Assembly (NCBI GenBank): GCA_036258315.1
Contig: DATADX010000029.1
Span: 32,769 to 96,768 of the forward strand
DNA length: 64,000 bases
Origin: Solirubrobacterales bacterium
GTDB lineage: Bacteria; Actinomycetota; Thermoleophilia; Solirubrobacterales; 70-9
Direction of reading: 5' to 3'
Shown here: in pieces, positions 5,555-50,050 of the stretch
Layout: each line of letters starts with the position of its first letter
How positions within the stretch are numbered: position 1 is the first letter of the stretch
Notes under the pieces: generated by a model
Told to the model about the DNA's origin: nothing
The model's input: only the letters and a program-made list of their open reading frames with translations
Database searches by the model: none
Made by a program: the position numbers and the translations under genes

Positions 5555-5563
5555 CTTCGCCGT

Positions 5564-7318
5564 TTACTCCCCGGCCGTCCGCTCGTCGGCGGCCTTGACG
5601 GTCTCGGGCTCGTCGGAGCTCTGCGCCTCTGGCGCACCGCCGTCCTGCGGGCTCTCCTGGTCGGATCCTTCTCCGCTCGTCTCGGCCTCGGCGTCGTCGT
5701 CCTCCGACTCCTCGGCCGCCTTCTCGCCAGCCTCTGCCTCGGCCTCTGCCTCGGCGGGCTCTTCGGCCTCCGCTGCCTCGGCCTCGTCCTCAACGACCTC
5801 CTCCGCCGCGGCCTCGGCGGCTTCCTCGGCCTCCTCGCCCTCGCCGGACTCCTCCGCCTCGGCCTCCTCCTCGACCGCCTCGGCGGCGGCCGCGTCGAAC
5901 TGGCTCTCGGCCCTGTCGACGATCGCCGCGACGTCGTCCTCGGGCGCATCGGGGGCTGCGAGCTTCTCGACCTCGTCGTCGCCGAGCGGGGAGAGGACGG
6001 CCACCTGGTTGGTGTCGAACCGGGCCAGCGCCTGATGCTGGGGCAGGCCGCAGTAGTGCGAGCCCTCGAGCGCCGCGTTCGGGCAGCGGCGCCCCGTCGT
6101 CAGCACCGCCATGCAGCGGCCGTCGGCGGCGGTCTCCTCACCCTCGTACTCGATGTCCTGCTCCTGCTGGGCGAAGTCCGTCTCGGAGGTGATGTCGACC
6201 TTCCAGCCGGTCAGCCGAGCCGCCAGCCGCGCGTTCTGGCCGTCGCGCCCGATCGCCAGCGAGAGCTGGTCGTCGGGGACGATCACGGTTGCCTCCTTGG
6301 TCTCGTCGTCGACGAGCACCTCCCGCACGCGGGCGGGAGAGAGCGCCTTGGCGACGAACCGGGCGGGCTCCTCGTTGAAGGGAATGATGTCGATCTTCTC
6401 GCCGCGGAGCTCGGAAACGACCATCCGCACCCGCGAGCCGCGGGGGCCGACGCAGGCGCCGACCGGGTCCACCCCGTCGGCATGAGAGATGACGGCGATC
6501 TTCGAGCGCCAGCCCGGCTCGCGGGCGACGCCGGTGATCTCGACCAGCTTGTCGGCGATCTCGGGCACCTCGAGCTCGAACAGCTTCTTGATCAGCTCGG
6601 GGTTGCGGCGTGAGACGACGATGCTCGGGCCCTTGGTGTCAGCGGATACGTCGGTGATCACGGCCTTCACCCGCATCCCGTGGTCGTAGCGCTCGTTGTA
6701 GACCTGCTCGGATCGAGGCAGCAGCGCCTCGACCCGCTCGCGCAGCTGCACGAGGGTGTAGCGGTTGTCGGACTGCTGGATGATCCCGGTGATCAGCTCG
6801 CCGACGCGGTCCTTGTACTCCTCGTACATCATCCCGCGCTCGGCCTCGCGGATCCGCTGCAGGATCACCTGCTTGGCCGTCTGGGCGGCGATCCGCCCGA
6901 AGTCCTCTGGCGTGACGTCGCGCGTCTCGATCTGATCGAGGTGGGGCTGCAGGCGCTCGGGCTCGACCTCGGGCTCCTCGCTCTCGCGGCGCTCGCCCGT
7001 CTCGGGATCGACGCTGGGTCCGCTCTGCTGGATCTCGGGCACCGGCTCGCCGGCGGCCTCGGCCGCCTCGGCCGCCTGGAGCTGCTCCTCGAACTGCTCG
7101 TCGAGCAGCCGCTGCTCGAGCTCCTCGGGGACGATCAGCTCGAAGACGCGGAAGTCCGCGGTGTTGTGGTCCAGCTCGACCTTGGCGTACTTCGCCGAGT
7201 TCGGGGTCTTCTTGTACGCGGAGAGGAGCGCATCGGAGAGCGCGTCCATCAGAGTGTCAGCGGCGATTCCCTTCTCCTGCTCCAGCGCCCTGACGGCGTC
7301 CACTATGTCCTGAGTCAC
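5564..7318 (-). CDS. nusA: Transcription termination/antitermination factor NusA with atypical insert and long acidic C-terminal tail
   Basis: 584 aa with an S1 region and two KH regions (GACVGPRGSRV, LAIGRDGQNARLAARLTGW). It also has an acidic insert after the N-terminal domain, a Cys/His cluster and an approximately 140-aa Glu/Ala tail. GTGA overlap with rimP. Confidence 0.95.
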   Translation of the reverse strand: MTQDIVDAVRALEQEKGIAADTLMDALSDALLSAYKKTPNSAKYAKVELDHNTADFRVFELIVPEELEQRLLDEQFEEQLQAAEAAEAAGEPVPEIQQSGPSVDPETGERRESEEPEVEPERLQPHLDQIETRDVTPEDFGRIAAQTAKQVILQRIREAERGMMYEEYKDRVGELITGIIQQSDNRYTLVQLRERVEALLPRSEQVYNERYDHGMRVKAVITDVSADTKGPSIVVSRRNPELIKKLFELEVPEIADKLVEITGVAREPGWRSKIAVISHADGVDPVGACVGPRGSRVRMVVSELRGEKIDIIPFNEEPARFVAKALSPARVREVLVDDETKEATVIVPDDQLSLAIGRDGQNARLAARLTGWKVDITSETDFAQQEQDIEYEGEETAADGRCMAVLTTGRRCPNAALEGSHYCGLPQHQALARFDTNQVAVLSPLGDDEVEKLAAPDAPEDDVAAIVDRAESQFDAAAAEAVEEEAEAEESGEGEEAEEAAEAAAEEVVEDEAEAAEAEEPAEAEAEAEAGEKAAEESEDDDAEAETSGEGSDQESPQDGGAPEAQSSDEPETVKAADERTAGE

Positions 7319-7947: not shown

Positions 7948-9333
7948 CTAGCCGGCCTGCTGAATCCCGGCGGTCAGGTCGCGGAGCTGCTGCGCCGTCT
8001 CGGCTGCGGCGCCGAGATCCTCGTCCCCCACGGCGCCGTTCAGCTCCTCGAGCAGCGTGTTGACCTCGACCCGGTCGGGTTCGGCGATCGTGTGCTGAAT
8101 CCGATCCCGCAGGTAGTCGATGGTGAAGAAATCGCCATTGACCAGAGCGGGGTCGCCCGCCTTCGCGTCGAGCCCGAGCTGTGCGAGCCAGAGTTGGAAG
8201 CGCGCGAAATCGACCTCGGTCGCTGGACGGTGACGGAGCTGCAGGTCGTAGGCCGACTGGGCGACGTCGATCGCCGCCTGGCTCGCCTTCGCCTGTTCGC
8301 CCGCATCGACCGCGCGGCGGAGCCTGCGGAGCGACGCGCTCATCAGCGGTTCGATGTTGTCCGGCACCTGACCGGCCTGGACCGTCTTCCAGGCGTCGCC
8401 CATCCGCGCGATTGTGCCCTTGGCCGAGCTGCCGAGCTGCCCGGCGCCGTAGATCCGCTCGGCTCCGGCCGCCAGCGCCTCGAGCTCGGCGGGGGTCGGC
8501 CCGTCGAGCCGGTCGGTTGGCACGGCCAGGGAGATCGCCTCGACGTCGCCCGCGCCACCGGTGAGGAACTCCCCGTAGCCGGGACCGAACGTCTTCGTCT
8601 CGCGGGCGCTGTCGAGCAGGTGGAGCTCCCGGATCTCGAGCCCGCCCTCGACGGGGCCGAGCGGCCCTTGGAGCGTCTTGTCGACCGCCTTCACCGTCAC
8701 CTCCTCGAACACGAACCCGGGGATGTTCTCGGGCCGGTACACCTGTCCGACCTGCGGATCCGCAGGCATGATCATCGCCGCCGGGCCATCCTTGCTTGCG
8801 ATCCAGGTCCCGTGCGTGTCGACGATGACGCCGTCTCTGAAGTTGAAGACGTCCTCGCCGAAGTACCACACGGCCCCGCTGTCGTCCTGGGCGTAGAAGT
8901 CATACGCCACCTCGTGCAGGCGCCCGCTCAGGAACGCGACGTACTGCGAGACGAGCACCTCCACCCGCTGTCCCTCCCACTCGATGATCCTGGTCTCGGG
9001 GAGCAGCGTCACCTCGGTCCTGAACGGCTCGCCATCGACCTGGCCGAGAAGCAGGACCGATTCCTGCTTCGAGACGGGGAAGAGCGAATTCGTGACCTCG
9101 GTCGGATTCGAGAAGGTCGGAACCTCCAGGTCTACTCTCCTGCTCTCGGGCGCGACCCGCGGATCGTCGACGGCCGGTTGCGGGATCGTTCCCGATCGTG
9201 TCTCAGCAGTCCCGTTCCCATCGCCGCCGCAGCCGGCCTGGACGAGCCCAGCGCAGAGCGCCAGCAGCAGCGCGAGGCCGACGGTGGTCTTGCCGGTCGA
9301 TCTCACCCGTGAAAAGAACGTTCGTGAACGCAT
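7948..9333 (-). CDS. Hypothetical lipoprotein
   Basis: Signal peptide with lipobox LVQAGC. The second ATG (9333) is preferred because GGAGGTG lies 6 nt upstream. No domain recognised by eye. Confidence 0.65.
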   Translation of the reverse strand: MRSRTFFSRVRSTGKTTVGLALLLALCAGLVQAGCGGDGNGTAETRSGTIPQPAVDDPRVAPESRRVDLEVPTFSNPTEVTNSLFPVSKQESVLLLGQVDGEPFRTEVTLLPETRIIEWEGQRVEVLVSQYVAFLSGRLHEVAYDFYAQDDSGAVWYFGEDVFNFRDGVIVDTHGTWIASKDGPAAMIMPADPQVGQVYRPENIPGFVFEEVTVKAVDKTLQGPLGPVEGGLEIRELHLLDSARETKTFGPGYGEFLTGGAGDVEAISLAVPTDRLDGPTPAELEALAAGAERIYGAGQLGSSAKGTIARMGDAWKTVQAGQVPDNIEPLMSASLRRLRRAVDAGEQAKASQAAIDVAQSAYDLQLRHRPATEVDFARFQLWLAQLGLDAKAGDPALVNGDFFTIDYLRDRIQHTIAEPDRVEVNTLLEELNGAVGDEDLGAAAETAQQLRDLTAGIQQAG

Positions 9334-9460
9334 TTCGATCACCTCCATCGACCCCCTCGGGGGCCGCCGGGATTTGTGCGGACGCCGCGAACCTATGTAG
9401 GGCCGATTAGGGCCCGGTGAGGCCCCGATGAGAGGCGGATGAGCATCGCCGCGCGCGCTG

Positions 9461-19343: not shown

Positions 19344-19927
19344 GCCGGGGTCCTCCTCGCCTCGGCGCCCGGGTTCGGCGCGTACTCGAGGATCAGCTTC
19401 TGGATCGCCTTGAACTCGTCGCTGCCGGCGCGGCCGACGAGCTCGAACAGCGCCGTCTCGACGCTGGTGACGACGGCGCCGGCCTGCTCCATCTTGTGGA
19501 GGCCGACACGCCGCGAGTCCGGGAAGCGGGAGCCGACCGCGTCCTCGGCGACGTGCACCTCGGCGCCGTCCGCGAGCAGGTCGAGGACCGTCTGGTTGAC
19601 GCAGACGTGGGTCTCGATGCCGCAGACGAGCGCCTGGTCGCGGCCGCCGAGGTCGAAGCCGTCGGCCTCGGCCGCGGAGAAGACGACCTTCTCGATCGGG
19701 TCGAAGTCCTCGGGCAGCAGCTCGGCGATCTCGGGGACGGTCCCGCCGAGGCCCTGCGGATACTGCTCCGTGACGACGATCGGAAGGTCAAGCGCCTGCG
19801 CGCCACCGACCAGTGTCGCCGCCGCCCGCGTGACCCGCTCGAAGTCGGGGAGCGCCTTGCGAAAGGCGTCCTGGACGTCGACCACGACCAGCGCGGCGCG
19901 CCCGGCCTCCAGCTTGCCGGCGCTCAT
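19340..19927 (-). CDS. Isochorismatase-family (cysteine) hydrolase inserted between pyrC and carA
   Basis: 195 aa from MSAGKLEAGRAALVVVDVQDAF. Candidate Asp/Lys/Cys triad (VDVQ, EKVVF, VCGIETHVCV). ATGA overlaps on both sides. Confidence 0.78.
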   Translation of the reverse strand: MSAGKLEAGRAALVVVDVQDAFRKALPDFERVTRAAATLVGGAQALDLPIVVTEQYPQGLGGTVPEIAELLPEDFDPIEKVVFSAAEADGFDLGGRDQALVCGIETHVCVNQTVLDLLADGAEVHVAEDAVGSRFPDSRRVGLHKMEQAGAVVTSVETALFELVGRAGSDEFKAIQKLILEYAPNPGAEARRTPA

Positions 19928-21309
19928 CCCGCGACCCCCATCGCAAAGCTGCGCTGCCTGAAGGCGACCCGCCCGTCCGCGACCGTCATCAGCACCCGGC
20001 CGGTCAGCCGGCGGCCGGCGAAGCAGCTGTTCCCGGAGCGGGACTCGTAGCCCTCCTCGCCGACCACCCACTCGAGAGACGGATCGACCAGCGCGAGGTT
20101 CGCCCGCGCCCCCGCCTCGATTCGCGGGGCGTCGATCCCGAACGGCTCGCCGCCACACGTAAGCTTCTCGACCAGCAGATCGAGCGCGATCGTGCCCGGG
20201 AGGACGAGCTCGGTGTGGAGCACCCCGAACGCCGTCTCGAGACCGGTCACCCCCATCGCGGCCTGCTCGAAGGGAACCTCCTTCTCCTCGATCGCGTGGG
20301 GGGCGTGGTCGGTGGCGATGCAGTCGATCGTTCCGTCCCGGAGGGCATCGACGAGCGCCTGGCGGTCGTCCTCGGAACGCAGCGGCGGGTTCATCTTGAA
20401 CCGGGCGTCAAGGCTGCGGACCGCCTCGTCGGTGAGCGTCAGGTGGTGCGGGGTCGCCTCGCAGGTGACCCGGCCGCCGGCCGCCTTGGCGGCGGCGATC
20501 GCGTCCACCGAGGCGCGCGCCGACAGGTGCTGGACGTGGACCCGTGCCCCCTCATAAAGGGCGAGGGCGCAGTCGCGCGCGATCGTCGTCGACTCCGAGA
20601 CTGCCGGGATCTCGGCCATGCCGAGCATCGCCGAGACCTCGCCCTCGTGCATCACCCCGTCGCCCGACAGGTCGGGGTCCTCCTCGTGGAGGGCGATGAC
20701 CCCGCCGGCAAGCCGCTGGTACTGGAGCGCGCGGCGCAGCACGCGGGCGCTCCGGATCGGCAGCCCGTCGTCGGAGAACCCGATCGCACCGGCGTCTCGG
20801 AGCTCGGCCATCTCGGTGAGCTCCTCGCCGGCCATCCCGCGGGTGACGGTGCCGACAAACCCGACCGGAACCGAGGCCTCGCTGGCCGCCCGCTCCCGGA
20901 CCGAGCCCAGCACCGCCGCCGAGTCGATCGGAGGCGAGGTGTTCGCCATCGCGATCACGGCGCAGTAGCCGCCCGCGGCGGCCGCGCGCGTGCCCGTCTC
21001 GAGGTCCTCCTTGTGCTCCTGACCGGGGACGCGCATGTGGACGTGGGGGTCGACGAAGGCCGGGAGCGCCAGGAGGCCCTCGCCGTCGACGATCTCGGCG
21101 CCGTCGACCTCGGGGGCGCCGTCGACCTCGGGGGCGCCGCCGGGCTCGGCCAGCTCGGCGATCTCACCATCGCGCACGACCAGGTCGCGGGTCGCGTCCA
21201 GTCCCGTCCGGGGGTCGAAGAGCCGGGCGCCCCGCACGATCAGCGCGGCGGGCCTGGCCCCCCGCGAGACCAGCCGGCGCGGCTCGGCGTTCGCAGCGGA
21301 ACCGTTCAT
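19924..21309 (-). CDS. pyrC: Dihydroorotase
   Basis: FVDPHVHMRVPG metal-binding motif and DHAPH. ATG at 21309 overlaps the pyrB stop (ATGA). The upstream part of the track ORF was discarded. Confidence 0.9.
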   Translation of the reverse strand: MNGSAANAEPRRLVSRGARPAALIVRGARLFDPRTGLDATRDLVVRDGEIAELAEPGGAPEVDGAPEVDGAEIVDGEGLLALPAFVDPHVHMRVPGQEHKEDLETGTRAAAAGGYCAVIAMANTSPPIDSAAVLGSVRERAASEASVPVGFVGTVTRGMAGEELTEMAELRDAGAIGFSDDGLPIRSARVLRRALQYQRLAGGVIALHEEDPDLSGDGVMHEGEVSAMLGMAEIPAVSESTTIARDCALALYEGARVHVQHLSARASVDAIAAAKAAGGRVTCEATPHHLTLTDEAVRSLDARFKMNPPLRSEDDRQALVDALRDGTIDCIATDHAPHAIEEKEVPFEQAAMGVTGLETAFGVLHTELVLPGTIALDLLVEKLTCGGEPFGIDAPRIEAGARANLALVDPSLEWVVGEEGYESRSGNSCFAGRRLTGRVLMTVADGRVAFRQRSFAMGVAG

Positions 21310-22268
21310 GCCGGCTGCCCGATCCGGGGCGGCTCGGCGGACGCGGGGCCCCGGTCGGGGCCGCCCCGGTCGCTGCCGGCCATCAGCTCGTAGAGGATCC
21401 CCATCCGGACCACCAGGCCGCTCTCGACCTGGGCGGTGATCAGCGACTGGGGCGAGTCGATCACCTCGGGGGCCAGCTCCACCCCGCGGTTGACCGGCCC
21501 CGGGTGCATCAGCAGCTGGCGGGGGGCGAGCCGTCGCGAGTCGATCTGATAGCGAGCCGCGTACTCGCGCAGCGAGGGGACGAAGCTCTCGCTCATCCGC
21601 TCGCGCTGCATCCGCAGCGCGTAGACGACGTCGGCCTCGCCGAGCCCGTCTAGCTCGTAGGTGACCTCGGCGCCGCTGGAGCGCTGGATGTCGCGGGGGA
21701 TCAGCGTCGGAGGGCCGCACAGCGTCACCTGGGCGCCCATCAACTCGAAGGCCTGCAGGCAGGAGCGCGCGACGCGGCTGTGCAGGACGTCGCCGACGAT
21801 CCAGATCCGCTTCCCGTCGAGCGAACCGAGCCGCTGGCGGAGCGTGAACACGTCGAGCAGCGCCTGGCTCGGATGCTCGTGCTTGCCGTCGCCGGCGTTG
21901 ACCACCGATGCCTCGGTCCAGCGGGCGACGAGGTCGGCGGCCCCGGCGTAGGGCGAGCGGATCACGATGATCGCGGGGTCGTAGGCGGACAGCGTCGCGA
22001 TCGTGTCCTTGAGGCTCTCGCCCTTGTCGACCGATGACCCCTGGGCCTTGATCGAGACCACGTCGGCGGAGAGGCGCTTCGCCGCGAGCTCGAACGAGGA
22101 GCTCGTCCGCGTGCTCGACTCGTAGAAGAGGTTCACGATCGTGCGCCCGCGCAGCGTCGGCACCTTCTTGATGTCGCGCTTGCCGACCTCCGCGAAGCTC
22201 TCGGCGCGGTCGAGGATGCGCTCGATCTCCTCGCGGGAGACCGAGGAGACGCTCAGCAGGTGCTTCAT
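21306..22268 (-). CDS. pyrB: Aspartate carbamoyltransferase catalytic subunit
   Basis: 320 aa. ESSTRT, HPSQ and HPGP motifs. Confidence 0.95.
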   Translation of the reverse strand: MKHLLSVSSVSREEIERILDRAESFAEVGKRDIKKVPTLRGRTIVNLFYESSTRTSSSFELAAKRLSADVVSIKAQGSSVDKGESLKDTIATLSAYDPAIIVIRSPYAGAADLVARWTEASVVNAGDGKHEHPSQALLDVFTLRQRLGSLDGKRIWIVGDVLHSRVARSCLQAFELMGAQVTLCGPPTLIPRDIQRSSGAEVTYELDGLGEADVVYALRMQRERMSESFVPSLREYAARYQIDSRRLAPRQLLMHPGPVNRGVELAPEVIDSPQSLITAQVESGLVVRMGILYELMAGSDRGGPDRGPASAEPPRIGQPA

Positions 22269-24844: not shown

Positions 24845-24917
<73 letters not shown>

Positions 24918-24920
24918 CTC

Positions 24921-25907
24921 CTAGCTCCGACCCGAAACGGAGGCCGCCTCCGGGCGAGCCTCGGGGTGCTCCCGGTACCACTCGTAGGTGCGCTCGAGAC
25001 CGGCGCGAAGGCCGACCTCGGGCCGCCAGCCCGTCACCGCGCGGATCTTGGTCGACTCGAGGTACTGCCGGTCGATCTCGCCGCTCGGGTTGCCCTCGCC
25101 CTGGAAGTCGGGCTCGATGTCGGTGCCGGAGATCTCGCAGATCGTCTCGACCACCTCGCGGACCGAGTTCGGCTTGCCCCAGCCGGCGTTGAAGGCCTCG
25201 CCCCTCGCGTCACCCTCCGCCACGGCGCGGGCGAGAGCGAGGTAGGCGCGGGCGACGTCCTCGACGTACAGGAAGTCGCGCTCGGGGCTTCCGTCGGAGC
25301 GGATCTCCGGGCGGCGGCCGTCGAGGAGCGCGGTGGTCGTCTCGGGAATCAGCCGCGAGAAGTTGAGGTCTCCGCCGCCGTAGATATTGGCGAACCGGGT
25401 GACGGCGACCGGGAGCTCGAAGCTGTGCCAATAGCTGCGCGCGATCAGGTCGGCCGCCGCCTTGGAGACGTCATACGGATAGACCGGCTGCAGGGCTGCG
25501 TCCTCCGCGTAGGGAAGCCGCTCGTGGGGGCCGTAGGCCTTGTCCGAGGAGGCGACGACGACGGCGCCGACGCCCGCGCTTCGGCACGCCTCGAGCAGGG
25601 TCCAGGTGCCCTCGATGTTGGTGCGGAAGGTCGGCAGCGGCGATGCGTTGGCGGCGCCGACGATCGCCTGCGCGGCGAGGTGAAAGACGGTGTCGACGTG
25701 ATGCCCGCGGATCGCCGCCTCGACCCGTCCGGGTTCGCAGAGGTCGCCCGCCTCCGCGGCCACGTCGGATTCGACCCCCAGCAGCGTCAGCCCCGAGGGG
25801 CGCTCGTCGCCGCGGTCGAAGCTGATCACCGCGGCGCCCTCCGCGAGCAGCAGCTTCGCGAGCCAGGACCCGGCGAAGCCGCGGGCCCCCGTGACGAGCG
25901 CCCTCAC
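24921..25907 (-). CDS. NAD-dependent sugar 4,6-dehydratase/epimerase (CDP-glucose 4,6-dehydratase-like)
   Basis: VTGARGFAGSWL Rossmann motif and YDVSK catalytic motif. GTG at 25907 overlaps the rfbF stop (GTGA). Substrate is inferred only from the cytidylyltransferase neighbour. Confidence 0.78.
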   Translation of the reverse strand: MRALVTGARGFAGSWLAKLLLAEGAAVISFDRGDERPSGLTLLGVESDVAAEAGDLCEPGRVEAAIRGHHVDTVFHLAAQAIVGAANASPLPTFRTNIEGTWTLLEACRSAGVGAVVVASSDKAYGPHERLPYAEDAALQPVYPYDVSKAAADLIARSYWHSFELPVAVTRFANIYGGGDLNFSRLIPETTTALLDGRRPEIRSDGSPERDFLYVEDVARAYLALARAVAEGDARGEAFNAGWGKPNSVREVVETICEISGTDIEPDFQGEGNPSGEIDRQYLESTKIRAVTGWRPEVGLRAGLERTYEWYREHPEARPEAASVSGRS

Positions 25908-26641
25908 GCGATCGACTCTTCCGCCCAGACCCGCCACGGCGGATCGCCCGCGGCCCAGAGGTCGTTGAGAAGGATCGCGTCCTTGTAGGTGTCCATGCAG
26001 TCCCAGAAGCCCGTGTGCCGGTAGGCGTTGAGCTCCCCGTCCGCCGCGAGCCTCTCGAGCGGCCCGCGCTCGAGCACGCTGTCTTCCTCGAGATAGGCGA
26101 GTGAGCCCGGCTCGAAGCAGAAGAAGCCGCCGTTGATCCATCTCTCGAGCCGCGGTTTCTCGGAAAAGCCCCGCACCCTGCCGTCGTCGCCGAGCTCGGC
26201 GAGCCCGAACTGGAGGATCGGCCGCACGACCGTCATCGTCGCGAGCGATCTCGAGCGATGGTGGGCGTCGAGCAGCGCGTCTAGGTCGAGGTCGGCGACT
26301 CCGTCGGCATAGGTCGCGCAGAACGTCTCGCCCTCGAGCCGGTCCTCGATCAGCTTCAGCCTCCCGCCCGTTGGGGTGTCCGGACCGGTCGGCACGCAGC
26401 TCACCTCGACCCCCACCGGCCAGGGCGTGTCGGCGACCCAGCGCTCGATCTGCTCGCCCATCGGCCCCGTGCACAGCTCGAAGCGCCCGAATCCCTGGGC
26501 GGCATAGATCGAGATCACGTGCCAGAGGATCGGGCGCCCGCCGATCTCGACGAGCGCCTTCGGAATCGACTCGGTGTGCTCGCGCAGGCGCGTCCCGCGG
26601 CCGCCGCAGAGGATCGCGACCGGTGTCGTTCGCATCGTCAT
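25904..26641 (-). CDS. rfbF: Glucose-1-phosphate cytidylyltransferase-like nucleotidyltransferase
   Basis: 245 aa. VAILCGGRGTRLRE...PKALVEIGGRPILWH and C-terminal GFWDCMDTYKD match the RfbF pattern. Confidence 0.82.
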   Translation of the reverse strand: MTMRTTPVAILCGGRGTRLREHTESIPKALVEIGGRPILWHVISIYAAQGFGRFELCTGPMGEQIERWVADTPWPVGVEVSCVPTGPDTPTGGRLKLIEDRLEGETFCATYADGVADLDLDALLDAHHRSRSLATMTVVRPILQFGLAELGDDGRVRGFSEKPRLERWINGGFFCFEPGSLAYLEEDSVLERGPLERLAADGELNAYRHTGFWDCMDTYKDAILLNDLWAAGDPPWRVWAEESIA

Positions 26642-26651
26642 GGCGGGAACC

Positions 26652-29138
26652 CTAGTCGGGTCTGCAGAGCCGGCGATCCAGCACCGTCAGGTGCGAGACC
26701 CGCTTCTTGCCGGTCCGGAAGCGCGCCCGGAGCACCCGCTTGCGCACCGACCAGGCCTTGTTTCTCAGCGTCTCGCCGTTGAGGCGAACCGCGCAGGGCC
26801 GCAGCCGCTTCTTCAGGGTCTCGAGCGATGCCTCGAGGTCGATCCTGTGGCGCGGCGCGCGCTTCACGATCAGTCGCCAGCGCCCGCGCTTCTCCCGCGA
26901 GACGAGCTCGCCGTTCTCGCGGAACAGCGAGTTCGTCCGCCCGCGCGGGAAGGCGAGCAGGTGCAGCTCGCGCGAGACGCTCTCCAGCCCCACGGTCGCG
27001 TTGTCGGAGCCGTAGGAAGCCAGCGTGTCGACGGTCGCGGGCAGCAGCGCCAGCACCGCGCCCGCCCGAACCAGCATCGGCAGCTCCCCGAGCGGCGCCG
27101 GGATCGCGACATCGCGGCCGCCGGCCAGGGTCGGGGCGCGCCGCAGGCGCAGCCCGCCGCCCTGCTCGTCGTAGGTGACCGCGCGCCAGAAGTCGACCCA
27201 GCGGCCGGCGGGGAGGTACACCGAGCGGCTCGTCTGCCCAGGGCCATGGACCGGCGCCGCGAGCAGGTCGCGGCCGAACATGAACTCGTCCTCCTGCGCG
27301 ACCGCGCTCGGATCGCCCGGGTGCGTGAGGGCGAGGTGACGCATCATCGGCATCCCGGTGCTGCGGTACTCGGCGTCGGCCGCGACCAGGTACGGGTAGA
27401 GCTGGGTGCGGAGCTTCGCGTAGCGTCGCCACACCGGGAGGATCTCGGGGTCGTGGATCTGAGGGCGCGGGGTCGGGTTGAGGTCCACCCCGTTCGCCTC
27501 GGTTCGCATCACCCCGGACACGGCGCCGAGCTCGATCCAGCGGATCAGCATCTCGGGGGTGAGGCGGTCGTCGAACAGCGAGAAGAAGCCGCCGATGTCC
27601 GAGCCCCACCGCGAGATCCCCGAGGTCCCGAGCGAGAGCGCCTGCTTGATCGCCGAGTCGATCCCGTCGAAGCCCCAGTCGGTGGTCGGGTCGCCCCCCC
27701 AGACGACCTGCGCGCACGGGTGCACCCCGGTCCACCCCGAGCGGATGAACGCGACCGGCGGCGGGGAGACGGTCCGCGCGTAGTCCCAGCTCGCGCAGTG
27801 GTAGAGCGCCGGGTAGAGGTTGTGCATCTGGGTGCCGGGGGCGCCGCTCGCGGACTGGGCGTCCAGCGGCGTGTACTCGCCGAAGTCCTCCATCCAGCCG
27901 TCGTATCCGTGACTCACCGCCTCCGAGAGCAGGCCGGCGAAGAACGCGCGCCCCGGCTGCGCCGAGAAGTCGAACTGCGAAACGGAGAACGGCGTCGTCG
28001 GGCTGGCGGCGTACTGATAGACGTAGGGCTCTGCGAGGGCGTTGGTGTTGAGCGCCCCGGCCGCCGAGGCCTGGCCGTAGGCGGGCGAGTAGCTGGTGCA
28101 GATCATCGGGTTGAAGTAGGTGGTGATCGCATAGCCGGCCTCGTGGAACTCGGCGGTCCGCTGCCGCTGCTGGTCCTCGATTCCCCGCTGGTCGCCGCAC
28201 GGCAGGTAGTGCAGGTAGGTGTTGACTGCGGACCCCGGGACGTCACCGGCGCGCAGCGACCGCGCCTGTCCGGGCTGGTCCGAGCCGGTCGGCTGGTACC
28301 AGGGGCCGAACACCCACGGCCCCGCCGGGGCCGGCTGGCGTCCGGTGATCGACGTCAACCGGCGCACCGCGTCAGCCGGCGCGGGACCGGCGAGAAAGCG
28401 GAGGCTCAGGGAGGTCGCCTCGGCCTCGACGCTCCACGCCCCGACGTCCGGGTTGGCGAGCCGGAAGTAGCTGCGCTCGGCGTTGTCGAGCAGCACGCCG
28501 TAGCCCGCGGTGGAGAGCAGCCAGGGCATCGGAAAGTACGTCGCGTCGTCGCGCGGGCTCCAGCCCTGCGGCGGCACGATGAACGAGATCACCGCCCGCT
28601 CGTCGGCCTCGTAGGGTCCGTCGGAGACGTAGTTCTCCACCTCGTTTCCGCGCTGGTCCACCGCGTTCGACCGCTCCCCGAAGCCGAGGTAGCGCTCGCC
28701 GGGCCGCGTGTCGAACCCGATCCCGATCGCCGTGACGCCGGTGGTGCCGCCGGTCACCGAGGCCGACAGGCGGACGATCCCGTCGCCGCCGGGCGCGAGC
28801 CGGATGTGGATCCCATGCGCGGGGTCGGTCGTCTCCAGGTCGGCCTCGTAGGCTCCTCCGGAAGAACCGCCCGAGGCGACGCGGGTGGCGTGGAACCAGC
28901 CGGCCGCGGTGCGGAAGCCCAGCGTCCCGCTCGGCCCAGGGCCGAGCCCCGCGTTCTCCGCGAGGACCGTCGCGCCGGCGGAGTCCGCGAGGCGCAGGTG
29001 CCACGGATCGGACGAGACCTCGGCGCGCAGCGGCCCGGCCGTGACCTGGGCCGCGGCCGGAGTCGCGAGCGTGGCCCCCAACCCGGAAAGGGCCGCGACG
29101 ATGCCGATCGGAAGGAGCCGGAGCCGGTGCGCGGTCAC
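26652..29138 (-). CDS. Secreted glycoside hydrolase family 31
   Basis: 828 aa. Signal peptide ending AAAQ. GH31-type catalytic region DGWMEDFGEY and WGGD. GTG start overlaps the stop of the sulfur-carrier ORF (GTGA). Confidence 0.82.
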   Translation of the reverse strand: MTAHRLRLLPIGIVAALSGLGATLATPAAAQVTAGPLRAEVSSDPWHLRLADSAGATVLAENAGLGPGPSGTLGFRTAAGWFHATRVASGGSSGGAYEADLETTDPAHGIHIRLAPGGDGIVRLSASVTGGTTGVTAIGIGFDTRPGERYLGFGERSNAVDQRGNEVENYVSDGPYEADERAVISFIVPPQGWSPRDDATYFPMPWLLSTAGYGVLLDNAERSYFRLANPDVGAWSVEAEATSLSLRFLAGPAPADAVRRLTSITGRQPAPAGPWVFGPWYQPTGSDQPGQARSLRAGDVPGSAVNTYLHYLPCGDQRGIEDQQRQRTAEFHEAGYAITTYFNPMICTSYSPAYGQASAAGALNTNALAEPYVYQYAASPTTPFSVSQFDFSAQPGRAFFAGLLSEAVSHGYDGWMEDFGEYTPLDAQSASGAPGTQMHNLYPALYHCASWDYARTVSPPPVAFIRSGWTGVHPCAQVVWGGDPTTDWGFDGIDSAIKQALSLGTSGISRWGSDIGGFFSLFDDRLTPEMLIRWIELGAVSGVMRTEANGVDLNPTPRPQIHDPEILPVWRRYAKLRTQLYPYLVAADAEYRSTGMPMMRHLALTHPGDPSAVAQEDEFMFGRDLLAAPVHGPGQTSRSVYLPAGRWVDFWRAVTYDEQGGGLRLRRAPTLAGGRDVAIPAPLGELPMLVRAGAVLALLPATVDTLASYGSDNATVGLESVSRELHLLAFPRGRTNSLFRENGELVSREKRGRWRLIVKRAPRHRIDLEASLETLKKRLRPCAVRLNGETLRNKAWSVRKRVLRARFRTGKKRVSHLTVLDRRLCRPD

Positions 29139-29410
29139 GCCCCGCCGGCCACGGCGGGGAGAATCGTGACCTCGTCACCATCGTTGACGCTGGTCTCGAG
29201 GCCATCCTGGAAGCGGATGTCCTCACCGGATACGTAGACGTTCACGAACCGCCGCAGATCCCCGTCCTGGGTGATTCGATCGCGAAGTCCGTCGTGCTGG
29301 TCGAAGACGGCGTCGAGCGCCTCGCCGACCGTCGAGCCCTCGACCTCGAGCTCTCCCTCCCCGCCGGTCGCGGCCCTGAGCTGCGCTGGAATCTTGACCG
29401 TGATCGACAT
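29135..29410 (-). CDS. MoaD/ThiS-family sulfur-carrier protein ending in Gly-Gly-Ala
   Basis: 91 aa. Beta-grasp-like pattern (VKIPAQLR...GSTVGEALD...VNVYVSGEDI...DGDEVTILPAVAGGA). Lies 15 nt downstream of the ThrC paralog. Confidence 0.75.
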   Translation of the reverse strand: MSITVKIPAQLRAATGGEGELEVEGSTVGEALDAVFDQHDGLRDRITQDGDLRRFVNVYVSGEDIRFQDGLETSVNDGDEVTILPAVAGGA

Positions 29411-29425
29411 CGGCGGGGATCTTAG

Positions 29426-30664
29426 TCAGACGGCGCTCGCCGGCGCCGTGCTGAGCTCCCGCTCGAAGGCGGCCAGGGTCGGCTCGATCTCCTGCATCCG
29501 GAAGGACTCGCGCGCCGCGTCGAGGGTCTTCAGACCCTCGCCGGTGACGTAGACGACGACCCGCTCGTCCGCTCCGATCGCCCCCTGCTCGGCGAGCTTC
29601 GCGAGCACGCCGACCGTCACCCCGCCCGCGGTCTCGGTGAAGATCCCGGTCGTCTCCGCGAGCAGCCTGATCCCGGCGCGGATCTCGTCGTCGCTGACCG
29701 ACTCGATCACGCCGCCCGTCCGGCGCGCGAGGTCGAGCGCGTAGGGGCCGTCGGCGGGGTCGCCGATCGCAAGGCTCTTCGCGATTGTGTCGGGCTTCTG
29801 CGGCTTGCAGACGTCGACGCCGTCGGCGAACGCCGTTGCGACCGGCGAGCAACCCTCGGCCTGAGCGCCGCAGAAGGTCGGGAGCTTCCCCTCGACCAGC
29901 CCGAGCTCGAGCCAATCCTCGATCGCGCGCCCGAGCCTGGTGAACAGCGACCCGGAGGCGATCGGCGAGACGATCCGGTCCGGGAGCTTCCACCCGAGCT
30001 GCTCGATCGTCTCGAAGGCGAGGGTCTTGGAGCCCTCGGCGTAGTACGGGCGAAGGTTGACGTTCAGGAACGCCCACGGCCGGGTCTGCGACAGCTCGGT
30101 GCAGAGCCGGTTGACGTCGTCGTAGTTCCCCTTGACGCCGACCAGGTTGGTCCCGTAGATGCCCGTCGCGAGCAGCTTCTGCTCCTCGAGGTCCGCCGGG
30201 ACGAACACGTACGAGTCGAGGCCGGCGGCGGCGGCGTGCGCGGCGACGGCGTTGGCGAGGTTGCCCGTAGAGGCGCACGCGACGGTCCCGAAGCCGAGCT
30301 CCTTCGCCTTCGCCACGGCCACCGCGACGACGCGGTCCTTGAACGAATGGGTGGGATTGGCGGCGTCGTTCTTGACCCACACCTCCCCCAGCCCGAGCCG
30401 CTCCGCGAGCCGGTCGGCGCGGATCAGGGGAGTGAGGCCGGGCTCGAGCGGGTCACCGGGGCGCCCCTCTGCGAACGGGAGGAAGTCCGAGTAGCGCCAG
30501 ATCCCGCGCGAGCCCGCCTGGATCTTGCGCCTCGCCTCGGCGGGGTCGAGATCGGAGTGGTCGTAGCGGACCTCGAGCGGGCCGAAGCAGCTCTCGCAGA
30601 AGAACGCGGCACCTAGCTCGTACCGGGAGGAGCACTCCTTGCAATTCAGAGATTCGACAGCCAT
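29426..30664 (-). CDS. Threonine-synthase-family PLP enzyme with N-terminal zinc ribbon (ThrC paralog, MetM-like candidate)
   Basis: 412 aa from MAVESLNCKECSSRYELGAAFFCESCFG (CxxC-x11-CxxC). PLP-lysine motif THSFKDR. ATG at 30664 is preceded by GAGGAG. The upstream part of the track ORF was discarded. Confidence 0.85.
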   Translation of the reverse strand: MAVESLNCKECSSRYELGAAFFCESCFGPLEVRYDHSDLDPAEARRKIQAGSRGIWRYSDFLPFAEGRPGDPLEPGLTPLIRADRLAERLGLGEVWVKNDAANPTHSFKDRVVAVAVAKAKELGFGTVACASTGNLANAVAAHAAAAGLDSYVFVPADLEEQKLLATGIYGTNLVGVKGNYDDVNRLCTELSQTRPWAFLNVNLRPYYAEGSKTLAFETIEQLGWKLPDRIVSPIASGSLFTRLGRAIEDWLELGLVEGKLPTFCGAQAEGCSPVATAFADGVDVCKPQKPDTIAKSLAIGDPADGPYALDLARRTGGVIESVSDDEIRAGIRLLAETTGIFTETAGGVTVGVLAKLAEQGAIGADERVVVYVTGEGLKTLDAARESFRMQEIEPTLAAFERELSTAPASAV

Positions 30665-30679
30665 CGAGCTCCTCTGACG

Positions 30680-30710
30680 AAAAAACCTCCGCCTGGTCTG
30701 TGGGCGGAGG
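30680..30710 (-). terminator. Riboswitch expression-platform terminator
   Basis: The minus strand reads CCTCCGCC-CACAGACCA-GGCGGAGG followed by TTTTTT, 16 nt upstream of the ATG. Confidence 0.7.
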
Positions 30711-30728
30711 TTCCGAGGAAACTCTTCC

Positions 30729-30840
30729 CACATCTTCCAGGCCTTCTCGAACCTGCTGGATTTGGCACCTCTCCTCGGACTCAGGTCCGAGGTGGTTGCC
30801 GGGGCTTCGTCGGGCCAGTCCCTCCACCCCTCTTGATGTG
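30729..30840 (-). promoter_or_regulatory. SAM-I (S-box) riboswitch aptamer
   Basis: The minus strand reads CACAUCAAGAGGGGUGGAGGGACUGGCCCGACGAAGCCCCGGCAACC-(P3 hairpin ACCUCGGAC/GUCCGAGG)-GGUGCCAAAUCCAGCAGG...CCUGGAAGAUGUG. It matches the S-box core blocks (AUCAAGAG, GGUGGAGGGACUGGCCCGAUGAA, GGCAACC, GCUAAUUCCAGCAG) with P1 CACAUC/GAUGUG. Confidence 0.85.
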
Positions 30841-30859
30841 GTGCAGCTATGTGGGGCGG

Positions 30860-44688: not shown

Positions 44689-45240
44689 TTAGCCCTCGGG
44701 GGTGAGCACGAGCAGCAGCCCGCCGTCGTCGTCGTAGGCGGGGAACACGTCGGCGACAGCCTCGGTCGGCAGGTCGCCCTCTGCGCGCACGGCGACCTTC
44801 TTGCCGAGCGAGCGAACGCCCCACTCGAGGGTCGTCTCGATCGGATCGGTGTCGCCGTCGCCGTCGATGTCGGCGGTCTCGCCGCCGTCGCCCTTGTCGA
44901 TCCACCTGAGGCCGAGCACGTCGCGGACCGGGCGTCCGATCGCGTCCTCGTCCTTGAGCCCGGTCAGCTCGAAGGCGTTCTTCCCGAGGTCGAGCAGGCG
45001 GCCCTGAGCGTCGCAGGTGAAGAAGGCGGCGCCAGGCGCGGGGTAGTAGTCGTCGAGGAGCTCGAAGAGGAAGCCGAAGCCGCACTTCGAGCAACCCTTC
45101 GGCCGGCCGCTGAAGCCGGCGGTCCGCTCGCTACTCAGTTCCCTGTTCCCGCAGTTCGGGCAGATGAAAAAAGGCACTGGCAAAAGGCTAGCTGAGGGCC
45201 TAAACGTAGGTTGACGGCTTCGCCGTCGAGTCGCGGCCAC
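44689..45240 (-). CDS. Hypothetical zinc-ribbon plus PAS-like protein
   Basis: CPNC-x20-CSKC followed by a segment resembling a PAS core (FFTCDAQGRLLDLGKNAFELTGLKDEDAIGRPVRDVLG). Fills the ruvB-secDF gap. The start is uncertain (GTG at 45240 or an internal GTG). Confidence 0.5.
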   Translation of the reverse strand: MAATRRRSRQPTFRPSASLLPVPFFICPNCGNRELSSERTAGFSGRPKGCSKCGFGFLFELLDDYYPAPGAAFFTCDAQGRLLDLGKNAFELTGLKDEDAIGRPVRDVLGLRWIDKGDGGETADIDGDGDTDPIETTLEWGVRSLGKKVAVRAEGDLPTEAVADVFPAYDDDGGLLLVLTPEG

Positions 45241-48400: not shown

Positions 48401-49033
48401 CTACTTGCGCGGCGGGTTCGTCGCCGAGATCACGAGCTTGAAGCAATCCAGCGTGCCCGACGCACTCGCGGCGTCGTCGTCCTCGACCAGCAGCGACCAG
48501 GTCGCGTTCGTTGCCTTCTTGTTGCCGAGGCCGTTGAGCAGATCGAGGCTCTCGAACGGCGCGAAGCTGCCTGCGAACGGCGCCGTCAGGCCCGGCGTGT
48601 CGATCCGGGTCGGGGTGTCGCTGTCGAACAGGGTGAACTGACCGGCGCAGCCGGCGAAGCTGCCGCCGTAGTTGTTGCCGGCGCCGCCGACGTCGTGCGA
48701 GAGGCTGATCACCCCGCGCGGCGTGGCCAGGTAGAACTCGAGGTCCTTCGCCATCGGGTGGGTTGCCCGGACCCCGACGTTGACGTCCCTGATCCTGCCG
48801 CGCGGATTCAGCCCCTTGACCGCGACCGGCGAGCGGACCAGCTGGGTCGCCTGCCCGGCGCCGTCCGGAATCGTCACCGCCGTGCCGCCCGTCGGGCTGC
48901 CGACCCCGTTCAGATACGTCTTGGTGACGACCTTCTTCTTCGCCTGCGCGGGCGCAACGGCCACCGCGAGGGAGCCGGCGAGAGCGACGGCCATCAGCAG
49001 CCCGGCCACCCTGCGCAGCTTCGAATAACGCAT
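48401..49033 (-). CDS. Secreted stand-alone proprotein-convertase P-domain-like protein
   Basis: 210 aa with a signal peptide ending AQA. RIRDVNVGVRATHPMAKDLEFYLATPRGV resembles the P-domain core. The call is by pattern memory only. Confidence 0.55.
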   Translation of the reverse strand: MRYSKLRRVAGLLMAVALAGSLAVAVAPAQAKKKVVTKTYLNGVGSPTGGTAVTIPDGAGQATQLVRSPVAVKGLNPRGRIRDVNVGVRATHPMAKDLEFYLATPRGVISLSHDVGGAGNNYGGSFAGCAGQFTLFDSDTPTRIDTPGLTAPFAGSFAPFESLDLLNGLGNKKATNATWSLLVEDDDAASASGTLDCFKLVISATNPPRK

Positions 49034-49090: not shown

Positions 49091-50050
49091 CTAACCCGCC
49101 CCGGATGCGCGTGTTTCGCTCCCCCGCACCACTGCGGCGAGCGTCCGGGCCACCTGATCGGGCTCGAACCTGATCTGTTCGTGCGTGAATCGGAGCGTCG
49201 TCATGCCCGCCCGCGCGTGCGCCTGATCGCGCTCGCGGTCCCGCGCCTGCTGCGCCGGAGTCCGGTGGTAGCGCAAGCCGTCTGTTTCGACCACCAGGCC
49301 GAGGGCGGGCCAGTGGAAGTCGACCTTGAACCCGTTCAGGTATCTGCCCGTTTCGGGCATGGGCAGCCCGGCCCGCCGCACGAGCCGCAGGAATCTGCGC
49401 TCGAGCTCCGAGTCGGTGAGCCGGAATGTGCGGCGGTCGAGGACGGCGCGGAGGGCCGCCACCCCGCGCTGACCGCGGTACCCCTCCAGCGCGGCGGAGA
49501 GCGAGCCAGGATCGATCAGGTCCCGCTTGTCGGCCGCGTTCACGGCCGCCTCGATCTCCGCCGGCCGTAGCCGGACGCTGACGTCGATCAGAGTCCGCGC
49601 CGGCATCGTGACCGGAATGCCGTCGCTCAAGGTCCGTTCGACATCCGCCAGCGCGCGCCGATGGACGTGGACGCCGTCAAGGCGGGGTCGAACGCTCCGC
49701 GGCACCGAGACATCGATGGTCGCCTCGGCGGGCGCCCGCGTCCGCGTCGGGACGATGCCCCAGAGCGCCGCTGCACTCGCGTGGCTCAGGAGCGCCCCGG
49801 GCCCGCAAGCGAGCACGGCAGCCATCCACCCCCCGCGGCGGGTCAGCTCGGGCCTTCCAACGACGTAGACGGAGCGGCGTATCCGGTGCAGGCGCCCCTT
49901 CGCGACGCGATGCTTGATCGCCTGCGGGTGAAGGCCGAGCTCGAGCAGCTGCGCCCGGGAGACCACACCGTGCTGGCGCCGGGCGATCGCCCACACCGAC
50001 GCCGCCGAAACGGCGCGCCGAGGCGCCGAGTGGACGCGCGGGGATGCCAT
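49091..50050 (-). CDS. DUF559 / Vsr-like endonuclease-fold protein with AbiEi-like N-terminal HTH
   Basis: 319 aa. N-terminus HGVVSRAQLLELGL..IKHRVAKGRLHRI. C-terminus SELERRFLRL...VDFHWP...VVETDGLRYHRT. Confidence 0.68.
   Translation of the reverse strand: MASPRVHSAPRRAVSAASVWAIARRQHGVVSRAQLLELGLHPQAIKHRVAKGRLHRIRRSVYVVGRPELTRRGGWMAAVLACGPGALLSHASAAALWGIVPTRTRAPAEATIDVSVPRSVRPRLDGVHVHRRALADVERTLSDGIPVTMPARTLIDVSVRLRPAEIEAAVNAADKRDLIDPGSLSAALEGYRGQRGVAALRAVLDRRTFRLTDSELERRFLRLVRRAGLPMPETGRYLNGFKVDFHWPALGLVVETDGLRYHRTPAQQARDRERDQAHARAGMTTLRFTHEQIRFEPDQVARTLAAVVRGSETRASGAG

Follow-up and report, generated by a model that had tools for sequence, protein, structure and literature searches.

In Streptomyces albulus, the threonine synthase (ThrC) homologue MetM and the sulfur carrier protein MetO turn O-phosphohomoserine into homocysteine. 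In that organism a SAM riboswitch lies ahead of metM, and annotations frequently mistake MetM for threonine synthase. The pathway was described in 2024 (Hasebe et al., Appl Environ Microbiol 90:e01247-24, PMC11497804). GapMind 2026 represents the pathway from O-phosphohomoserine as MetO, Mec, MoeZ, and MetM. A cyanobacterial homologue ~52% identical to S. albulus MetM is reported to have threonine synthase and deaminase activity and not to be fully MetM-like – implying that function may vary within the wider MetM clade. Two other systems pair a protein thiocarboxylate with a PLP enzyme. In Mycobacterium tuberculosis CysO-CysM (with Mec+ and MoeZ), a thiocarboxylated beta-grasp carrier serves a fold-type-II enzyme of the CysK/CysM family whose substrate is an O-phospho amino acid. 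In Wolinella succinogenes HcyS-MetY (with HcyD and HcyF; Krishnamoorthy & Begley 2011), a fold type I O-acetylhomoserine sulfhydrylase uses a protein thiocarboxylate to convert O-acetylhomoserine into homocysteine.

We analyzed a 64-kb window, the whole stretch of DNA considered here, which is part of a 109,689-bp contig from a metagenome-assembled genome (MAG) of a Solirubrobacterales bacterium (class Thermoleophilia). On the minus strand of this window, a SAM-I riboswitch is followed by a metM-like gene (ORF1) and then a metO-like gene (ORF2). We consider it very likely that these elements form a two-gene methionine-supply operon, metM-metO, that is repressed by SAM at the level of transcription and makes homocysteine. 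The features of the locus, none of which is attributable to chance, are as follows:

30727-30842, minus strand: SAM-I (S-box) aptamer with helices P1-P4 (Rfam RF00162)
30691-30742, minus strand: alternative antiterminator helix (partial-leader fold)
30680-30712, minus strand: intrinsic terminator, a stem-loop plus U6 (minimum-free-energy fold of the full leader)
30669-30674, minus strand: Shine-Dalgarno sequence GAGGAG, 4 nt before the ATG (read from the sequence)
30664, minus strand: ATG start codon of ORF1 (read from the sequence)
29426-30664, minus strand: ORF1, metM-like gene, 412 aa (read from the sequence and profile matches)
29411-29425, minus strand: spacer of 15 nt between ORF1 and ORF2
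29135-29410, minus strand: ORF2, metO-like gene, 91 aa (read from the sequence and profile matches)

Our analysis establishes that the RNA element and its alternative folds are present, that the two genes are paired, and that the locus is orthologous to actinomycete riboswitch-metM(-metO) loci. A preliminary description had recognized a minus-strand S-box aptamer with the P1 helix CACAUC/GAUGUG and had proposed a covariance-model search. P1 indeed has this sequence, and the Rfam model RF00162 matches the leader along its entire length (model positions 1-108 of 108) at 88.3 bits (E 1.2e-19; gathering score 44.4). Among 47 homologous leaders, 13 pairs have changed on both sides and 96.9% of cells are paired; 0 of 500 shuffles reach the observed value and slid controls are 43-50% paired, though fitting the alignment to the model biases it slightly towards the structure.

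Downstream of the aptamer, the 8-bp/U6 terminator, the Shine-Dalgarno sequence and the ATG all lie where the preliminary description had put them. The terminator consists of a 5' arm CCUCCGCC (30710-30703), a 9-nt loop, a 3' arm GGCGGAGG (30693-30686) and U6 (30685-30680), with a stem of eight G-C-rich pairs, or ten if A-U pairs are counted. When the whole leader is folded, the hairpin is part of the minimum-free-energy structure (z = -4.1), and a relative (L001) has a matching hairpin in which the stem changes are compensatory (CCUCUGCC/GGCAGAGG), followed by a U7 run. No sigma-70 consensus promoter emerged from a simple promoter/terminator scan, which missed the terminator only because it allows loops of at most 8 nt. 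When 30672-30745 is folded with the 5' half of the aptamer left out, an antiterminator forms at -30.7 kcal/mol, pairing GCCUGG (30742-30737) with CCAGGC (30696-30691) and UGUGGG (30732-30727, the 3' strand of P1) with CCCACA (30704-30699). In these folds the antiterminator helix is mutually exclusive with P1/P4 and with the terminator stem.

The leader is a SAM-I riboswitch with a terminator/antiterminator platform, and we predict that SAM binding makes it end transcription. When SAM is low, the 3' halves of P4 and P1 would pair with the 5' arm and loop of the terminator, and the resulting antiterminator would let RNA polymerase proceed into metM-metO. At high SAM, the ligand would lock P1-P4, the hairpin of 8-10 bp followed by U6 would form, and transcription would end ahead of the ATG. 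This platform differs from that of actinomycete metM leaders, which lack a U-run and have an in-frame AUG ~18 nt past the aptamer.

A tblastn search returned ORF1 homologues (52-58% identity) in 80 actinomycete genomes, a set that includes 11 Streptomyces and does not include S. albulus. A custom covariance model detected a SAM-I aptamer directly upstream of the enzyme gene in 79 of the 80 loci with upstream DNA (81 were fetched), and the Rfam model itself found the aptamer in all 12 homologous loci tested. Of the 80 actinomycete loci, 41, all 11 from Streptomyces among them, have a carrier ORF with a GG or GGC end immediately 3' of the enzyme gene, and so does L001. Three Solirubrobacterales relatives keep the enzyme and carrier genes as a unit despite differing downstream genes.

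The preliminary description had also pointed to a 91-aa beta-grasp protein that begins 15 nt after the first ORF and ends in AVAGGA. ORF2 indeed matches Pfam ThiS (62.7 bits) along with NCBIfam SAMP1 and moaD_arch (57.5 bits for the latter), indicating a beta-grasp ThiS/MoaD fold. Among solved chains it comes closest to 4n6e_B and to CysO of M. tuberculosis (3dwg_C, 48% identical), and its identity to the carriers from genes beside Streptomyces metM-like genes is 48-53%. We found it impossible to separate MetO from CysO by sequence, as identities are 48-66% in all directions. The C-terminus of ORF2 is Gly-Gly followed by one extra Ala, whereas Streptomyces carriers end in GG or GG-Cys. In a set of 120 close homologues, GG is the C-terminus of 80, and ~30 have tails of 1-3 aa after it (R, S, A, C, G, T, and others). 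Wolinella HcyS also starts out with a single additional Ala at its C-terminus, which a metalloprotease trims off, and the AVAGG-A end of ORF2 would need similar processing. A JAMM/Mec-type peptidase may remove the terminal Ala.

The enzyme could instead make homocysteine from O-phosphohomoserine with free sulfide, leaving the adjacent carrier dispensable or an alternative donor; in keeping with this, the 5 kb around the enzyme gene is devoid of a carrier gene at 39 of the 80 riboswitch-metM loci of actinomycetes (in Micromonosporaceae, Geodermatophilaceae, Jatrophihabitans, and others). We regard this as quite unlikely. The carrier gene lies 10-23 nt behind the enzyme gene in all four genomes of this lineage, the present one included, and loci without an adjacent carrier may draw on a CysO-type carrier from elsewhere that is 55-66% identical to the metM-adjacent ones. 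In addition, the 2024 S. albulus study reportedly used the MetO thiocarboxylate as the sulfur donor of MetM.

For ORF1, the preliminary description had proposed a threonine-synthase-fold enzyme with a THSFKDR motif and an N-terminal CxxC-x11-CxxC ribbon, and profile matches and motifs bear this out: ORF1 matches Pfam PALP (240.8 bits) and contains the PLP-lysine motif NPTHSFKDR and a Cys4 zinc ribbon (C8xxC11-x11-C23xxC26). It also scores 273.7 bits against TIGR00260 thrC (cut-off 167.1), a match that cannot discriminate MetM from ThrC since a Streptomyces metM orthologue scores 270.8 bits and shows the same NCBIfam pattern. The label 'zinc-ribbon ThrC paralog' in the preliminary description holds insofar as the ribbon is present, but we rejected the ribbon as a hallmark of MetM because it also occurs in PRK08197-type proteins bearing ThrC-like motifs. 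ORF1 falls below the cut-off of that family (NF006050/PRK08197; 278 bits versus 303), of which true members (P0360, P0372, P0385 and P0389) score 360-372 bits and have ThrC-like motifs.

ORF1 is 54-56% identical to the riboswitch-linked Streptomyces homologues versus 34-38% to solved ThrCs, the latter values covering residues 55-400. A PDB search with ORF1 returned no solved MetM, and the closest chains were canonical ThrCs aligned from residue 55 on. Comparison with five solved ThrCs identified eight motif differences common to ORF1 and the Streptomyces homologues: NPTH rather than NPTG, KDRVV rather than KDRGM, STGNL rather than STGNT, NVNLRPYYAEGSKT rather than NSVNPxRxEGQKT, ASGS rather than GNAGN, SLAIGNPADGPY rather than AIRIGNPASW, ETAGGVT rather than EPASAAS, and GLKT rather than GLKD. 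ORF1 thus lacks the ThrC active-site motifs NPTGSFKDRG, STGNT, NSVNPxRxEGQKT, and GNAGN, and carries NPTHSFKDRV, STGNL, NVNLRPYYAEGSKT, and ASGS in their place. In work on the Thermus structures, STGNT and NSVNPxRxEGQKT are reported to contain the phosphate-binding residues of ThrC. In a phylogeny of the kind that the preliminary description had called for, ORF1 groups with the riboswitch-linked actinomycete homologues in a MetM-type clade with shared motifs, apart from canonical ThrC (200/200 neighbor-joining bootstraps). Its placement as sister to the actinomycete homologues is recovered in only 50/100 bootstraps. The published identity of Bacillus subtilis ThrC to MetM is 33%, in agreement with the 35% obtained here.

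These data make it very improbable that ORF1 is a genuine threonine synthase, the second or only one of this organism, placed behind a SAM riboswitch beside a carrier that serves, for example, molybdopterin or cysteine synthesis. Such a reading has on its side the TIGR00260 score, the in vitro ThrC activity of the cyanobacterial homologue and the public names, all of which read 'threonine synthase'. The preliminary description had predicted this mis-annotation, and the carriers are likewise named 'ubiquitin-like small modifier protein 1' or 'MoaD family protein'. A Streptomyces metM orthologue nonetheless shows the same profile pattern, the active-site motifs are unlike those of all five solved ThrCs, and the MetM-type clade is separate. 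SAM repression of threonine synthesis would also lack regulatory sense, yet the S-box is kept in nearly every homologous locus, and a hom/thrB context is absent from the 64-kb window.

S-boxes control some cysteine-related genes in Firmicutes. A role for the pair like that of CysO/CysM or of cysteate synthase, itself derived from ThrC, with O-phosphoserine as substrate and cysteine or a different thio-amino acid as product, would fit such regulation, the CysO-type relatives of the carrier and the ability of ThrC-family enzymes to use O-phosphoserine. It is extremely improbable given that ORF1 matches the cysteate synthase model at full length but weakly (79.7 bits, cut-off 324.9) and cysKM at 41.9 bits (cut-off 344), both far below the cut-offs, and shares its level of identity and all signature motifs with Streptomyces orthologues of an O-phosphohomoserine-using enzyme.

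In the metM-metO reading, ORF1, a fold-type-II PLP enzyme of the ThrC superfamily, is probably an O-phosphohomoserine-dependent homocysteine synthase and, by way of the other Streptomyces loci, the likely orthologue of the characterized S. albulus MetM. The chemistry at this locus may follow the scheme of Hasebe et al. 2024 as other authors describe it. MetO would first lose the Ala beyond Gly-Gly; a MoeZ-type E1/rhodanese, with its gene in another part of the genome, would then adenylate and thiocarboxylate it. MetM would bind O-phospho-L-homoserine, the substrate of ThrC, on PLP and eliminate the phosphate; the MetO thiocarboxylate would attack C-gamma, whereas ThrC adds water at C-beta. Homocysteine and regenerated MetO would be the products.

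The 64-kb window contains no moeZ, mec/JAMM, thrC, thrB, or hom, and moeZ and mec were not found beside Streptomyces metM either, so that activating enzymes do not adjoin the pair in either lineage. A gene for a secreted GH31 glycosidase follows metO, with a GTG start overlapping the metO stop codon (GTGA), and NDP-sugar genes are located behind it. We largely rejected these genes as operon members, as they are absent after metO in two relatives (L082 and L083). It is unlikely that the SAM-controlled transcript runs past metO into the GH31 and NDP-sugar genes or, alternatively, that the GG-Ala pro-form of the carrier is a proteolytic checkpoint on homocysteine synthesis. Were the read-through real, SAM levels would also gate envelope or glycan metabolism.

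The locus thus has the layout of Streptomyces MetM/MetO: a SAM-I riboswitch, a Cys4-ribbon ThrC-homologous PLP enzyme with identical signature motifs, and a CysO-like carrier immediately 3'. It differs from the Streptomyces system in its host, a member of the Thermoleophilia, and in minor ways in its terminator-type platform and the extra Ala of its carrier. With CysO-CysM it would share a thiocarboxylated beta-grasp carrier that feeds a fold-type-II PLP enzyme on an O-phospho amino acid, but the enzyme here is of the ThrC family, is under S-box control and would convert O-phosphohomoserine to homocysteine. With HcyS-MetY it would share homocysteine formation from a protein thiocarboxylate, though through a fold-type-II ThrC homologue that probably acts on O-phosphohomoserine. 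Canonical ThrCs (TIGR00260; 2zsj, 6cgq, 1uim, 2d1f) have the same fold, the PLP-lysine motif SFKDR and the presumed substrate of ORF1 – and differ in lacking the zinc ribbon and S-box control, in the eight conserved motifs, and in belonging to a separate clade.

Homology, riboswitch linkage, and the literature thus favor the SAM-repressed MetM/MetO-type module of the preliminary description, though its novelty was overstated and we infer the enzyme activity. Since the pathway was already published in 2024, the locus is not novel as a system; the evidence supports a new member of the MetM/MetO system in a Solirubrobacterales MAG, with no new biology. NCBIfam release 20 still labels MetM-type proteins as threonine synthase and their carriers as ubiquitin-like small modifier or MoaD proteins, so metabolic reconstructions of such MAGs would wrongly predict methionine auxotrophy. 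Used alongside the near-universal S-box, the motif set NPTH-SFKDRVV, STGNL, NVNLRPYYAEGSKT, ASGS, and GLKT could distinguish MetM from ThrC and could seed a dedicated family model. In taxonomic range, the finding adds the class Thermoleophilia to the MetM/MetO route, which draws O-phosphohomoserine from the threonine branch and turns it into homocysteine.

We found that the Rfam SAM-I model RF00162 matches the region upstream of the two genes over its full length (88.3 bits, with gathering set at 44.4; E 1.2e-19), in agreement with the S-box aptamer proposed in the preliminary description. The terminator, Shine-Dalgarno sequence and start codon described there are likewise all present in the sequence, at 30710-30664. 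The locus comprises the following features.

30727-30842, minus strand: SAM-I aptamer
30710-30703, minus strand: 5' arm of the terminator hairpin, CCUCCGCC, followed by a 9-nt loop
30693-30686, minus strand: 3' arm of the hairpin, GGCGGAGG
30685-30680, minus strand: U6 tract directly 3' of the hairpin
30674-30669, minus strand: Shine-Dalgarno sequence GAGGAG, between the U6 tract and the start codon
30664, minus strand: ATG start of ORF1
29426-30664, minus strand: ORF1, metM-like, 412 aa (Pfam PALP, 240.8 bits; TIGR00260 thrC, 273.7 bits)
29135-29410, minus strand: ORF2, metO-like, 91 aa (Pfam ThiS, 62.7 bits; NCBIfam SAMP1, 77.1 bits)
26652-29138, minus strand: GH31 glycosidase, secreted (signal-peptide-like N-terminus), with a GTG start
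24921-29138, minus strand, the same as metMO: block of GH31, NDP-sugar transferase and epimerase genes

Aptamer and terminator both form in the fold of the complete leader (-87.8 kcal/mol, z = -4.1). Omitting the 5' half of the aptamer from the fold yields an alternative helix at -30.7 kcal/mol, in which GCCUGG (the P4 3' strand) and UGUGGG (the P1 3' strand) pair with CCAGGC and CCCACA – parts of the terminator's 3' arm and of its loop and 5' arm, respectively. Because this predicted helix is a classical antiterminator, the modelled leader reads as a transcriptional OFF switch. The hairpin is missing from the output of a simple terminator scan solely because that scan allows loops of no more than 8 nt.

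The gene pair is organized as had been described. ORF1 encodes a fold-type-II PLP enzyme (Pfam PALP, TIGR00260) with an NPTHSFKDR lysine motif and an N-terminal C8xxC11-x11-C23xxC26 ribbon; after a 15-nt spacer, ORF2 encodes a protein assigned to the ThiS/MoaD fold that ends in AVAGGA. The nearest solved structures to the latter are CysO-type carriers (4n6e_B, 93.9 bits; Mycobacterium tuberculosis CysO 3dwg_C, 78.7 bits), and sequence comparison does not separate it from CysO. Both proteins are present in public databases, with a Solirubrobacterales MAG as the source, and their names bear out the predicted mis-annotation: the enzyme (HEX2359045.1) is a "threonine synthase", the carrier (HEX2359044.1) a "ubiquitin-like small modifier protein 1", and JGI copies of the carrier go by "MoaD family protein" or "molybdopterin synthase sulfur carrier subunit".

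We compared the enzyme with solved canonical threonine synthases (ThrCs) from Aquifex (2zsj), Bacillus subtilis (6cgq), Thermus (1uim), M. tuberculosis (2d1f) and Arabidopsis (1e5x). These are 29-38% identical to it and alignable only from residue 55. Identity to B. subtilis ThrC is 35%, and a 2026 preprint gives 33% between that protein and MetM. Eight motifs are common to the window enzyme and every riboswitch-linked actinomycete homologue and absent from the solved ThrCs.

Motifs of the window enzyme and its actinomycete homologues, with the solved ThrC counterparts
Motif 1: NPTH; NPTG in solved ThrCs
Motif 2: KDRVV; KDRGM in solved ThrCs
Motif 3: STGNL; STGNT in solved ThrCs
Motif 4: NVNLRPYYAEGSKT; NSVNPxRxEGQKT in solved ThrCs
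Motif 5: ASGS; GNAGN in solved ThrCs
Motif 6: SLAIGNPADGPY; AIRIGNPASW in solved ThrCs
Motif 7: ETAGGVT; EPASAAS in solved ThrCs
Motif 8: GLKT; GLKD in solved ThrCs

Several of these positions are reported from the Thermus structures to touch substrate phosphate or PLP in ThrC, making an altered reaction outcome relative to ThrC plausible. In neighbour-joining trees, proteins with an RPYYxEG motif, the window protein included, form a clade distinct from canonical ThrC in 200 of 200 bootstraps, though the window protein is the exact sister of the actinomycete group in only 50 of 100. The clade also stands apart from a second zinc-ribbon group (P0360, P0372, P0385 and P0389) that clears the cut-off of the NCBIfam "threonine synthase" model PRK08197. 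Members of this group carry ThrC-like motifs – NPTGSFKDR or a close variant, NPYxxEGxKT and GLKD – with P0372 deviating at the last two. Judged from these sequences, the zinc ribbon is not specific to MetM-type enzymes, because PRK08197-type proteins with ThrC-like motifs also bear it.

Searching single representatives of 50%-identity clusters returned many full-length matches with an N-terminal ribbon; we aligned these homologues and, with the alignment, scanned a single genome for each GTDB species. The scan returned 80 actinomycete loci, including 11 from Streptomyces and 2 from Kitasatospora; by tblastn, all 80 homologues share 52-58% identity with the window enzyme. The Rfam SAM-I aptamer lies directly upstream in 12/12 loci tested. 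With our own covariance model, built from aptamers that Rfam found upstream of homologues, we identified a same-strand upstream aptamer in 79 of the 80 loci for which upstream DNA was fetched; the sole locus without one at E <= 0.001 is L077 (a MAG of Actinomycetota, gene 5001-6218). Helix covariation across 47 leaders is strong: 13 pairs changed on both sides and 96.9% of cells are paired, a result reached by 0 of 500 shuffles, with slid controls 43-50% paired.

Of the 80 actinomycete loci, 41, among them every Streptomyces locus, have a carrier ORF after the enzyme gene; these carriers are 44-53% identical to the window carrier and end in GG, some in GGC. In the other 39 (L002-L034, L036, L041, L046, L052, L057 and L067), tblastn detects no carrier gene within ~5 kb, nor is there a credible short carrier-like ORF with a GG end; for a few of them the sequence stops shortly past the enzyme gene. 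They include Micromonosporaceae, Geodermatophilaceae, Jatrophihabitans and Frankiaceae; such genomes may have the carrier gene at another locus, or their enzymes may take sulfide directly.

The window carrier terminates in GG-Ala, versus GG or GGC in Streptomyces. Among 120 close homologues (P0121-P0240), 80 have no residue after GG and ~30 have 1-3 variable residues; even between homologues >85% identical the tail may be R, S, A, C, G, T or 2-3 residues. The tail is thus not conserved, and presumably must be trimmed ahead of adenylation. In Wolinella, HcyD removes the tail of HcyS-Ala.

Pfam scans of plausible ORFs across the whole 64 kb place the pair among housekeeping genes only. One flank holds truB, infB, nusA, rimP, coaBC, gmk, pyr/car genes and pyrR and, continuing towards the pair, genes for an RNase-Z-like MBL protein, tRNA-Arg, an epimerase, an NDP-sugar transferase and the GH31 glycosidase; the other holds a divergent corA, HIT, PGM, MBL, DAGK, relA and recJ, then secDF, ruvCAB, yebC, pdxS and kdp genes. 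The same scans found no thrB, hom, thrC, metX/Y/B, moeZ/ThiF or JAMM peptidase genes in the window. The metM-like locus of S. griseoincarnatus, flanked by otsB, otsA and a GT2 gene and by a chaperonin and an OYE reductase gene, likewise has no hom-thrC-thrB operon and no activating enzymes among its neighbours.

In three Solirubrobacterales relatives (L001, L082 and L083), corA and the riboswitch-PALP-ThiS genes are kept as a unit. The GTG start of the GH31 gene overlaps the metO stop codon (GTGA, 29135-29138), and the GH31/NDP-sugar transferase/epimerase block may be co-transcribed with metMO. We rejected the block as part of the conserved module: only the window and L001 (11517-15734) have it behind the carrier, whereas L082 and L083 lack it, and so it looks like a lineage-specific insertion.

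Elsewhere in the window, tRNA-Arg(ccg) at 24845-24918 is backed by both ARAGORN and Rfam. An ARAGORN call of tRNA-Ala(cgc) at 20426-20500 (plus strand), antisense within a dihydroorotase-like ORF (19924-21720), falls below the gathering score of the Rfam tRNA model and is probably a spurious call within GC-rich coding DNA. Three minus-strand ORFs with coding-like GC3 – 7948-9348 (466 aa), 44689-45240 (183 aa) and 48401-49033 (210 aa) – match no Pfam family at E <= 1e-5. A further ORF, 49091-50050, carries both an AbiEi_4 and a DUF559 domain.

The MetM/MetO system is not new: it was published in 2024 (Hasebe et al.), and the pathway-annotation tool GapMind 2026 already includes it, listing MetO, Mec (for MetO), MoeZ and MetM as steps from O-phosphohomoserine and crediting that work. 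In S. albulus, metM has a SAM riboswitch upstream and metO is a sulfur-carrier gene, and a cyanobacterial homologue is reported as a threonine synthase/deaminase, not fully MetM (mSystems 2025). At the sequence level, the window locus shows the defining metM/metO architecture and groups with Streptomyces orthologues, an assignment that would make the preliminary description's homocysteine-synthesis module right; the observation is confirmed and its interpretation supported.

The window differs from Streptomyces loci in its host, a member of Thermoleophilia, in its GG-Ala carrier end, and in its hairpin-U6 terminator, matched by a U7 version in L001 with compensatory stem changes. Actinomycete leaders, unlike the window's, lack a U-run and have an in-frame AUG ~18 nt past the aptamer, suggesting a different read-out, translational or Rho-dependent. 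In Streptomyces and several other genera, though not all, GAGGAG overlaps the P1 3' end (L073 4927-4946 and equivalent stretches), and a CCUCC-type stretch lies just 5' of the AUG.

Against NCBIfam, the Streptomyces orthologue and the window protein score alike: both exceed the TIGR00260 cut-off and fall short of that of PRK08197. The public "threonine synthase" names arise because NCBIfam release 20 holds no model separating MetM from ThrC and none specific to MetM, so that naming proceeds via TIGR00260. The significance of the locus is mainly for annotation.
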